Notes under the pieces: generated by a model
Database searches by the model: none
Told to the model about the DNA's origin: nothing
What the model saw: the letters and a program-made list of their open reading frames with translations, nothing else
Shown here: one piece after another, positions 30,308 to 33,379 of the stretch
Position numbering within the stretch: the first letter of the stretch is position 1
How the letters are laid out: each line of letters opens with the position of its first letter
Translations under genes and position numbers: made by a program
DNA from: Promethearchaeati archaeon
Lineage (GTDB): Archaea > Asgardarchaeota > Heimdallarchaeia > Heimdallarchaeales > Heimdallarchaeaceae
Direction: 5' to 3'
Length of the DNA stretch: 64,000 nucleotides
Assembly: GCA_013166775.1 (NCBI GenBank)
Contig: JABLTJ010000004.1
Span: forward strand, 96,001-160,000

Positions 30308-33300
30308 TTACGATTTCCTGAATTTAGGTCCAGTTCTATAAAGAACAACTGACGTAACTACGAAACCAATTGTAACTAAGAATAAAGAAGCAAAAGCACC
30401 TATGGTACGGTTTGCATCTGCATTACTGATTTCATCTAGGAAATTCACCAGAAGGTATTCATAGAACTTAGAAGTTGCTCTGTGAACATCTTCTCCCCAA
30501 AAGAGAGTTCCCATGTTACCTGTTAATCCAGGATTAGTTGTGTGCCATGTTCTGTATCTATCACTTTCAGCTAAAATATCAGGATCTATAATCCATTCAT
30601 CTCTAACAGCGTCATAATAACCATATAACGTTGCATTAAGAAATGCATAAGCTTCTGAAAATCCTTCCACTCCTGTACAGTACTGTACTCTATCTTCTCT
30701 TAGAATAACACTTCCAGTGACAGGCTCTGCTCTCATATTTTGCATATGGAAAGGATCTCTGGAAAATCCAGGGAGAGAGTGCGTAAGCTCAAAATCACTA
30801 GGGCGGAAATCAAGATCATACATTCTATTCCATCTTCCTACGTGTATGAAACTAGAGTTCAGAAAGTTGGAAGTTATCATCCAATAAATATCTGTCATTG
30901 CTAATTGTCTGAGCGGTACAGTAGCTTGAGCAGTATAAACTAGAACATCTTGATCATAGAAGATAGCAGTATCTGTCAGAGAAGAATACGCAAATGGTCT
31001 AAAGAAGAATTCACTCCATTGTTGTCGTAAACCTTTTTCAGCATAAGGATAAACAGCAAAATTGTCGTAAGTTTCGTTAAATATTAATTCTGATTCTATA
31101 AGTGTCCAATCATTAAATTGAATCTTTGAATCTTGTCTCCAACACTCAACGAATGCATGCAACTCATCTCGTTCAAGTTCTTCAAAAGTGCCACCAACCC
31201 CTAACTCTAAATGGACAAGACCTTCAGAACCATCAGCAAGGTAAATATCATCTAGATCAGCAAAAATACCATATGCTGAACCTAAATGGTCAGTTCCATC
31301 AAATCTGTGTAGTTCTGTTAGGGTTGCAGGTGCAGTTGTACTTACAATTGTGAATCCATAATCACCTTGTGTAAGATAAGCTCTTGCTGTACCTTCATCA
31401 ACATAGAGATTGTTGAAATAAGTCTCTGCTGGATCGTAGGAGAATTGATCTAATTCTGTGAGAATACCATCAAAATCAACACTAAAAGTAAGTAATCCTT
31501 CTATTTGATCTAAAACATAAACAGTACTACCTTTAGCTTTGATATCAATAACGTTTTTGAGATTTGGAAAATCAGCTGCATTATAGTGTAACACATCACC
31601 TAAATAACCTGTAGCTTGCTCAATTTCTACAACATTGATTCCATCTGTACCTAGTGCTATATATGCATGTCTTCGATTATCGTTAACATCAATTGCAATA
31701 GCAGTACCGTTTAATGCTTTGGTCTCTATAGTTGTACTTATTGCTCCTTCTGAACCAATTGTATCGCTTATTCTAGCATATGTTATTCCATATACACCGT
31801 TAGCGATATACAGAGCATCAAATGGAAGACCTTCTCCCATGGAAGAATAATCTATATCTCGCATGTCAGAGTCGCCAAAATTACTCCATTGATCTACTTC
31901 ATATATTGAGGCTGGATTTGTTGCATTCAACACTTCTAATCCTCTTGCTCCTTCAACAGCATATACATATCCATCAACTACTGCAAAACCTAATATTTGG
32001 CCATCAGATCCAAAGGCTTGTTCTGTAGTTGTAACATAATCACCATATTGACCAATAGCCATGAACAATGGGTGAGTCATATTAACAATCTTAATATCTG
32101 TACCTCCTTCAAGAACATAAGCTAAATCATCTTCCACAATGACATCTGATGATTGAGAGTTTTCATAGTATGGGATGTTTGCAATCCCCAGAATTTTTCC
32201 GACATCTTGAACATCATATGTACCTAATTGCTCAGCGTAGAAAAGATCTTCAGTCCAATCAATACTATCACTTGTGAGGGTTTGATTTATAATGAATGGG
32301 AATCTTCGATTTCCAAGTAAAGGATCCTCAATACCTAAGATCCATTCAAGAGCTGTTCTTTTGCATACGTAAGAAATCTTGTTTTCATATAGCCAGTCAA
32401 CAGAAGGCCTACCTAATAGATATTGCAAATAAGCAGCAAAAGATTGTGCTAATTCTCTTTCATATACTGTATCTATATCATAAATATCTGCGAGAAGTTG
32501 TTCCACATCAACAATTAGATCGTTTGCATCATAATCCAATCCTTTCACTAAATCAATGAAGAATTTAGCTGAACCTGACTCTCCTTTTAATATAGAATAA
32601 TCATGACCATTATATTGTGCATCATACAAGATTTTATAGCTTGTGGCTTGGTCAAAATCAAGATCTGGGTATGCAGGTCGAACACTTAACCAATTATGAG
32701 GTAAATAAATACCCAAATCTAATAATCCTTCTTCCTCTGCATAGGTTCGATTAAGAACTGCATAGGCTAGTTCACTATCAGAATATACAACAGGATCACC
32801 CTTGAAATTTAAGAGTTCTTTCTGAAGAAGGAAGGCTGCAACATAAGCTTGAAAACCATATTCTGTTCCATTACCAAACTCATTAATATAATAAGGCCAC
32901 ATATAATTAAAATTCAAAACTGCTTCATCACCTGTTAAGGTTGAGGCTGTTGCGTTGAAAAGATATTGCTTTCTATAGGCATATACTATATAATCTCCTT
33001 CTATATCATATTCTAGAATTGTTTTGTTTATTATAATATCAAAGATAAGATCACCTTGAACGAAGTAATAAGCAATTGGGTTACCATAATCAAGAAAACC
33101 TGCACGATCACTTACATTGAAGAACTCAAAGAATGCTTGATCATAGAATAGTGAATCATTTTCCCAGCCACCTGTATACATCCACTCTGAATTCGCTCCT
33201 GAATCATCAAAGGGATCAAAATCATCTTCTGTTAATTTCCCAAAAATATTTAATCTTTCATTTATGTCCTCAATTTTATTCACAGAGCTTTGTGGGAGAA

Positions 33301-33379
33301 GAAGTCCGATTGTAACTGCTGAACCCACGAAAATAGTTATAATTAATATTCCTAAAGCTGTCCGAAATTCTGCTCGCAT
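30308..33379 (-). CDS. CD36/scavenger-receptor-B-like two-TM protein with inserted LVIVD beta-propeller
   Basis: TM at both termini; FFNVSD, RKQYLF..S, RTALEWILGIEDPLL, SLPGF and EPVTG......RVQY motifs; seven Y(V/I/L)...G..G(L/I) LVIVD-like blades. Confidence 0.72.
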   Translation of the reverse strand: MRAEFRTALGILIITIFVGSAVTIGLLLPQSSVNKIEDINERLNIFGKLTEDDFDPFDDSGANSEWMYTGGWENDSLFYDQAFFEFFNVSDRAGFLDYGNPIAYYFVQGDLIFDIIINKTILEYDIEGDYIVYAYRKQYLFNATASTLTGDEAVLNFNYMWPYYINEFGNGTEYGFQAYVAAFLLQKELLNFKGDPVVYSDSELAYAVLNRTYAEEEGLLDLGIYLPHNWLSVRPAYPDLDFDQATSYKILYDAQYNGHDYSILKGESGSAKFFIDLVKGLDYDANDLIVDVEQLLADIYDIDTVYERELAQSFAAYLQYLLGRPSVDWLYENKISYVCKRTALEWILGIEDPLLGNRRFPFIINQTLTSDSIDWTEDLFYAEQLGTYDVQDVGKILGIANIPYYENSQSSDVIVEDDLAYVLEGGTDIKIVNMTHPLFMAIGQYGDYVTTTEQAFGSDGQILGFAVVDGYVYAVEGARGLEVLNATNPASIYEVDQWSNFGDSDMRDIDYSSMGEGLPFDALYIANGVYGITYARISDTIGSEGAISTTIETKALNGTAIAIDVNDNRRHAYIALGTDGINVVEIEQATGYLGDVLHYNAADFPNLKNVIDIKAKGSTVYVLDQIEGLLTFSVDFDGILTELDQFSYDPAETYFNNLYVDEGTARAYLTQGDYGFTIVSTTAPATLTELHRFDGTDHLGSAYGIFADLDDIYLADGSEGLVHLELGVGGTFEELERDELHAFVECWRQDSKIQFNDWTLIESELIFNETYDNFAVYPYAEKGLRQQWSEFFFRPFAYSSLTDTAIFYDQDVLVYTAQATVPLRQLAMTDIYWMITSNFLNSSFIHVGRWNRMYDLDFRPSDFELTHSLPGFSRDPFHMQNMRAEPVTGSVILREDRVQYCTGVEGFSEAYAFLNATLYGYYDAVRDEWIIDPDILAESDRYRTWHTTNPGLTGNMGTLFWGEDVHRATSKFYEYLLVNFLDEISNADANRTIGAFASLFLVTIGFVVTSVVLYRTGPKFRKS

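Follow-up and report, generated by a model that had tools for sequence, protein, structure and literature searches.

A probable divergent CD36/LIMP-2 family protein with an inserted seven-bladed LVIVD propeller in Heimdallarchaeaceae

Topology and domain organization of P0001

The window analyzed here, that is, a stretch of 64,000 nucleotides from a Promethearchaeati archaeon of the family Heimdallarchaeaceae (assembly GCA_013166775.1, contig JABLTJ010000004.1, positions 96,001 to 160,000), carries a gene whose product, P0001, appears to combine the core of a CD36-type receptor with an inserted beta-propeller (Table 1). A hydropathy scan revealed exactly two hydrophobic helices in P0001, one near each end, where the AlphaFold2 model also places helices, and the R/K-rich tails outside them are 7 residues long at the N-terminus and 8–9 at the C-terminus. 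P0001 is a surface protein that crosses the membrane twice and keeps its two short tails in the cytoplasm, as had been proposed in a sequence-only reading of this DNA made earlier without database searches. The ectodomain of ~960 amino acids (aa) has an isoelectric point (pI) of 4.1, with 16% D+E vs. 5.6% K+R, and P0001 contains 14 sequons vs. 5.8 ± 2.2 in shuffled sequence, four of them, at N88, N170, N365, and N841, being conserved in 33 or more of the 36 orthologues; the same reading had already described the ectodomain as very acidic and rich in sequons. This layout of two transmembrane helices and short tails is that of the operational definition of class B scavenger receptors (SR-Bs), a CD36 domain between two transmembrane helices (PMC10715195).

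In the ectodomain, a CD36 core is interrupted at two points, by a helical expansion of ~170 aa where the ligand-sensing apex lies and by a propeller at the tip of a beta-hairpin. In detail, the first core block carries the motifs FEFFNVSDR, QGDLIFD, and LNFNYMWPYY, the second carries KRTALEWILGIEDPLL, a sequon at N365, and the LGTYDVQDVGKILGIAN strand, and the C-terminal half carries FVECW, THSLPGF, HMQNMRAEPVTGSVILREDRVQY, and TLFWGED. The CD36 signature motifs that had been recognized as colinear by eye, including FEFFNVSD (FWIFDVQN in CD36) and SLPGF (SLPHF), were present and family-invariant in motif alignments, and residues N88, R341/T342/E345/W346, E885/T888/G889, D896/R897, and W961 are invariant across the family. 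The helical apex expansion had been overlooked in that reading. Mean identity by region was highest for the apex (67%), intermediate for the barrel halves (49–60%), and lowest for the propeller (45%).

The structure of P0001 was modelled with AlphaFold2 on a 36-sequence family alignment, giving a confident model with a mean predicted local distance difference test (pLDDT) score of 81.4 and a predicted template modelling score (pTM) of 0.74. In the model, 28 strands form seven groups of four at residues 410–737, and this domain superposes on LVIVD cluster models at a template modelling score of 0.83. The Pfam LVIVD model (PF08309) matched 23 of 26 orthologues (best E value 3.7e-13), and no LVIVD match to P0001 itself was obtained in a direct Pfam scan of the protein, whole or in three pieces. 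The insert comprises all seven blades of an LVIVD propeller and spans 31160–32167, close to the ~31200–32150 first assigned to seven LVIVD-like blades. The insertion site is a hairpin whose counterpart in human LIMP-2 reads EWNG|KTSLDWW. Only one other relative, a weak one, was found in the same genome, and a propeller-less form of the family was not found within the length range searched (562–1791 aa).

Within the apex, residues ~237–270 (~32570–32671) weakly resemble the Vps4 MIT domain over 34 aa (E 0.19), the family N-flank profile reading DLDFDxATSYKILYNATYNGxDY against the first helices of that domain. Because these residues are extracellular, the match is probably due to chance.

Relationship of the flanks to the CD36 family

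To place the segments on either side of the propeller, orthologues of P0001 were compared with the Pfam CD36 model (PF01130, gathering score 26.5 bits). Two orthologues, P0005 (27.3 bits) and P0044 (28.1 bits), exceeded the gathering score, and 13 of the 26 matched the model at E<0.1, always colinearly, with the N-terminal part mapping to profile positions 78–237 (78–183 in P0005 and 144–237 in P0043) and the C-terminal part to 361–402. A hidden Markov model (HMM) built from canonical Asgard CD36 proteins, which are described below, matched every listed orthologue, in 2–5 colinear segments each.

The flank profiles were then aligned by hhalign to a 22-sequence CD36 alignment, consisting of 17 canonical Asgard and 5 eukaryotic members. 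The N flank matched at 95.1% (E 3.5e-8) over template columns 28–521, and the C flank at 92.3% (E 5.6e-7) over columns 507–740, with 92.3–92.5% and E 5e-7 across the C-flank comparisons; therefore, the two flanks lie in the correct order. The scores of the real flanks were 70 and 60, vs. 18–20 for the reversed template and at most 28 for 15 block-shuffled templates, with a best control E value of 0.014. In a six-frame search of 399 Asgard genomes with the C-flank profile, three matches in intact open reading frames (ORFs) were obtained outside the family, in genomes G274 (E 7e-6), G276, and G172, and all three fell inside canonical CD36 genes. Pairwise BLASTP of P0001 against the canonical Asgard CD36 proteins gave only marginal local matches, at the right places.

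When the propeller was excised in silico, the alignment of P0001 crossed the junction ungapped, through one hairpin of the CD36 core. The junction '...GKILGIANIP | HAFVECW...' aligned with '...ARVDTWKG | ESSLSWW...' of fish LIMP-2c and with '...KIVEWNG | KTSLDWW...' of human LIMP-2. The orthologue Pfam scores, the hhalign scores against controls, the reciprocal search, the junction alignment, and the topology support the kinship to class B scavenger receptors suggested by the sequence-only reading; at the level of sequence, both flanks are thus supported as colinear homologues of the CD36/SR-B family.

Canonical CD36 genes and distribution of the P0001 family

Unmistakable CD36/SR-B genes were detected in 28 of the 399 Asgard genomes by a six-frame search with the Pfam CD36 model, with scores reaching 238 bits at the DNA level and 329 bits at the protein level (Pfam E values down to 1e-98). 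Their profile matched human LIMP-2 at E 1e-71 and human CD36 at E 2e-64. The proteins are 600–1370 aa long with a transmembrane helix at each end, have a Pfam-blank insertion at profile position ~145–180, and show weak secondary matches to Pfam PorA. They are labelled only 'hypothetical protein' by NCBI, and their hosts are Kariarchaeaceae, other Heimdall-group families, and Promethearchaeota. Judged by these profile matches and by the transmembrane helices at their ends, the canonical Asgard CD36 proteins are genuine CD36 family members.

Their apex insert consists of tandem helical repeats of ~110 aa (…GYPEYWAW…LWGL…YLxY…), totalling 150–700 aa, as seen at L014:923-4429 (P0153) and L015:874-3978 (P0152). 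P0153 holds two nearly verbatim copies of the repeat, and no Pfam family covers it.

The P0001-type N flank and C flank were found in 27 and 29, respectively, of the 30 other genomes of the window's GTDB family (f1), with the propeller-bearing form at a single locus per genome, including two single-contig genomes. The propeller-bearing form was not found in any other Asgard family among the 399 genomes. Canonical CD36 above the cut-off was absent from the f1 genomes and present in f2, f3, f4, f6, and f20. This complementary distribution suggests vertical descent of the P0001 family with acceleration, but the tree described below does not place the family. When 5.8 billion proteins were searched through a word index, 41 relatives of P0001 were obtained at 40–86% identity, and nearly all named sources were Heimdallarchaeaceae/Heimdallarchaeota metagenome-assembled genomes, one partial sequence being labelled Thorarchaeota. 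Among 1.84 billion representatives searched exhaustively with HMMER, eight matches were members of the family, seven of them below E 1e-30; the remaining matches were confined to residues ~357–738, in or just before the propeller.

A phylogeny, which had been proposed as a check of the CD36 assignment, was calculated from the propeller-excised family sequences, the canonical Asgard proteins, and five eukaryotic members. It recovered the P0001 family on a long branch of 2.9 substitutions/site and left the family without a placement; the eukaryotes grouped in a single clade, amid Asgard clades of unresolved order.

At G051:C370:8493-8756, the N-flank profile marginally matched (E 0.019) an intact 568-aa ORF of a same-order genome that has no PF01130 match. 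This ORF could be another divergent CD36-like gene, or the match could be noise.

Comparison with known systems

Like P0001, the vertebrate receptors LIMP-2/SCARB2 (4F7B, 4Q4F, and 5UPH), CD36 (5LGD), and SR-BI have two terminal transmembrane helices, short tails, and a large ectodomain, which is glycosylated in the vertebrate SR-Bs and rich in sequons in P0001. The motifs F-x-N-(V/L)-(S/T), R-T-x-x-E-W-(I/L), (L/F)-P-x-F, E/N-P-x-T-G...(K/D)-R-x-Q, and (V/F)-W-x-E are colinear in both. However, the likeness is visible only to profile-profile methods, and P0001 differs in its archaeal host, in lacking the metazoan disulfides, in the added LVIVD propeller of 336 aa, and in a helical apex of ~170 aa that replaces the three-helix bundle.

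The canonical Asgard CD36 proteins share with P0001 the archaeal host, terminal transmembrane helices on both sides, and a helically expanded apex, and their last apex repeat and RTxxEW segment align with the C-terminal part of the P0001 apex and the segment after it. Unlike P0001, they have no propeller, an apex of ~110-aa tandem repeats, and a strong Pfam CD36 score; in its own archaeal family, the P0001 family replaces them.

A survey of 279 eukaryotic SR-Bs inferred an origin in the last common ancestor of the eukaryotes and reported only helical apex expansions that have no homologue among known domains, and its text contains neither 'archaea' nor 'prokaryote' (Genome Biol Evol 2023, PMC10715195). 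Non-metazoan eukaryotic SR-Bs resemble P0001 in having a conserved barrel core, predicted from sequence for P0001, and a helical expansion of the alpha4/alpha5 apex that is specific to the lineage; in contrast to P0001, no folded propeller inserted elsewhere in the barrel is reported for them in the survey (PMC10715195). The new domain architecture claimed on first inspection stands in this respect, as no such insertion was found described. The LVIVD surface proteins (PF08309) carry their propeller as a terminal module of a secreted protein, whereas P0001 nests it inside a loop of another domain.

Literature searches combining CD36 or scavenger receptor with Asgard, archaea, or Heimdallarchaeia turned up no report of CD36 from an Asgard archaeon, the papers searched treating the receptor family as restricted to eukaryotes, and the accessible part of the supplements of Eme et al. 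(2023) holds no CD36 entry. The sole prokaryotic link to CD36 in the literature searched is that of the actinobacterial DUF3068/PorA proteins (PgfA/MSMEG_0317 and LmcA), which are reported to have limited structure-based homology to CD36 and to act in lipid trafficking (eLife 2022, PMC9678360). These are prokaryotic envelope proteins like P0001, but they belong to another phylum and lack a propeller, and the P0001 family has no Pfam PorA match.

Proposed function and alternative explanations

Taken together, P0001 is probably a lineage-specific, fast-evolved CD36/LIMP-2/SR-B member present in only one Heimdall-group family, which the NCBI records of the orthologues label Heimdallarchaeaceae. 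In such a protein, the helical apex, the propeller, or both would capture a ligand or a partner surface, hydrophobic cargo such as fatty acids and other lipids would move through the inside of the barrel toward the cell membrane's outer face or away from it, and the propeller would add a second platform for recognition or adhesion. We infer lipid uptake or ligand handling by P0001 by analogy with CD36, SR-BI, and LIMP-2, in which ligand capture at the apex is coupled with a hydrophobic tunnel to the membrane (PMC10715195).

Several results weigh against this assignment. P0001 itself has no Pfam or NCBIfam match, whole or cut into three pieces, and lacks the metazoan disulfide cysteines. Neither phmmer and hmmsearch with P0001 and the family profile nor the flank-only profiles matched CD36/LIMP-2 among PDB sequences, the only matches there being a designed Kelch-like propeller and the weak one to a Vps4 MIT helix. 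The reciprocal genome search with the N flank was marginal, with one match located in a canonical CD36 gene. The full model, searched with Foldseek against PDB, VIA-align wide, and ESM Atlas, returned only propellers and no LIMP-2/CD36; since propellers filled the match lists, these searches are uninformative on the flanks. The ESM Atlas feature search gave no usable match to the N flank, and when the C flank was folded alone, its pLDDT was 49, vs. ~70–90 for the same segment in the full model, and fold searches with this pLDDT-49 model gave no meaningful match. The collapse of the C flank on its own fits, if weakly, a single domain built from both flanks, and the predicted CD36 core may be one domain that needs both. 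Finally, as the family branch measures 2.9 substitutions/site, the function may have drifted.

The main alternative, which we regard as unlikely, is that P0001 derives from CD36 but has lost lipid handling and is purely a glycosylated adhesin or scaffold, whose propeller and helical apex bind partner cells, the S-layer, or extracellular polymers. This would agree with the very long branch relative to canonical CD36, with the conserved sequons, with the apex being the most conserved region ahead of the barrel halves, and with LVIVD propellers being typical of bacterial and archaeal surface proteins. However, the propeller is the least conserved region, and the core CD36 motifs of the long barrel strands have stayed invariant family-wide, which argues for selection on the barrel itself.

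It is very improbable that the gene was recently gained from a eukaryote, rather than descended from Asgard CD36, and acquired its propeller afterwards. The restriction to one archaeal family, the missing placement of the long branch in the tree, and the absence of synteny with the canonical Asgard CD36 loci would allow such a transfer; against it, the P0001 apex aligns with the repeat of Asgard-type apices, a single locus is present in 29 of 30 family genomes with synteny kept down to 40% identity, and the distribution complementary to the canonical CD36 of sister families fits vertical descent with acceleration. Least probable of all is that the flanks are unrelated to CD36 and that P0001 is an LVIVD-propeller surface protein with chance motif likeness: the lack of a direct Pfam match to P0001, of a PDB sequence match to the flank profiles, and of a fold-level match would fit this, but two independent flanks matched the CD36 alignment at 92–95% and in the expected order, no control did better than E 0.014, orthologues scored above the Pfam gathering score, the reciprocal genome-wide matches fell only in CD36 genes, and the topology is identical to that of the CD36 family.

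With P0001 read as a divergent CD36 family member, its family is a testable candidate for lipid uptake or exchange or for partner attachment, two processes of importance to models of eukaryogenesis. The nested propeller is a natural example of the insertion tolerance of the CD36 barrel, and the genuine CD36 genes in several Asgard lineages shift the question of the origin of the family into the archaea. Class B scavenger receptors are central to the uptake of fatty acids, cholesterol, and carotenoids, to lysosome biology, and to phagocytosis. A wider and only tentative possibility is that CD36/SR-B predates eukaryotes and was inherited from an Asgard ancestor, and that the Heimdallarchaeaceae version joins a propeller recognizing a partner cell or particle to a lipid-exchanging barrel. 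If true, CD36/SR-B would be a eukaryotic signature protein that was not found in the searched papers or tables of such proteins, and contact-dependent lipid uptake as in phagocytes and lysosomes would have a precedent among prokaryotes.

Gene neighbourhood

The features of the P0001 gene and its direct neighbours are collected in Table 1, together with examples of the canonical Asgard genes.

Table 1. Coordinates of P0001, its parts and neighbouring genes in the window, and of canonical Asgard CD36 examples
Feature	Position	Strand	Basis or remark
Whole gene, P0001, 1023 aa	30308..33379	(-)	ORF call, orthologues, conserved start
Transmembrane helix 1, aa ~8-28, after 7-aa basic tail	33296..33358	(-)	Hydropathy; AlphaFold2 helix 3-46
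CD36 core block 1, aa ~60-160, first long strands	32900..33202	(-)	hhalign N flank; orthologue P0005 Pfam match
Alpha-helical apex expansion, aa ~161-332	32384..32899	(-)	AlphaFold2 helices 161-332, pLDDT ~85-94
CD36 core block 2, aa ~333-404	32168..32383	(-)	Motif alignment; orthologue P0043 Pfam match
Seven-bladed LVIVD-type beta-propeller, aa ~405-740	31160..32167	(-)	AlphaFold2 strands, orthologue Pfam LVIVD matches
CD36 core C-terminal half, aa ~741-990	30410..31159	(-)	hhalign; orthologue Pfam matches; reciprocal genome search
Transmembrane helix 2, aa ~993-1015, then basic tail RTGPKFRKS	30335..30403	(-)	Hydropathy; AlphaFold2 helix 970-1015
Soluble Pfam-blank protein, 433 aa	33557-34858	(-)	Same strand, directly upstream of P0001 gene
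Topoisomerase VI B subunit, 4170 aa	17626-30138	(-)	Directly downstream of P0001 gene, conserved synteny
Canonical Asgard CD36 examples, P0151-P0164, loci L013-L021	L013:1073-3826, L014:923-4429, L019:549-2372		

The window has a G+C content of 31–36% and carries archaeal or Asgard-type genes, including topoisomerase VI A, the 4170-aa B subunit (Top6B), tubulin-like genes, and HEAT-repeat proteins. The start codon position of P0001 is kept across orthologues, and the gene order, that is, tubulin-like genes, a soluble protein of 418–433 aa, the P0001 gene, and the giant Top6B, is kept down to 40% identity. No synteny was found between the P0001 locus and the canonical Asgard CD36 loci.

The gene of the 433-aa protein adjoins the CD36-like gene also in the genomes at 40–52% identity. 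In those genomes, a pyruvate kinase lies between the homologue of the 433-aa protein and the tubulin-like pair, a gap that has no pyruvate kinase in the window. The 4170-aa Top6B has a transducer domain at the N-terminus and a RAD51D_N-like helix-hairpin-helix at the C-terminus.

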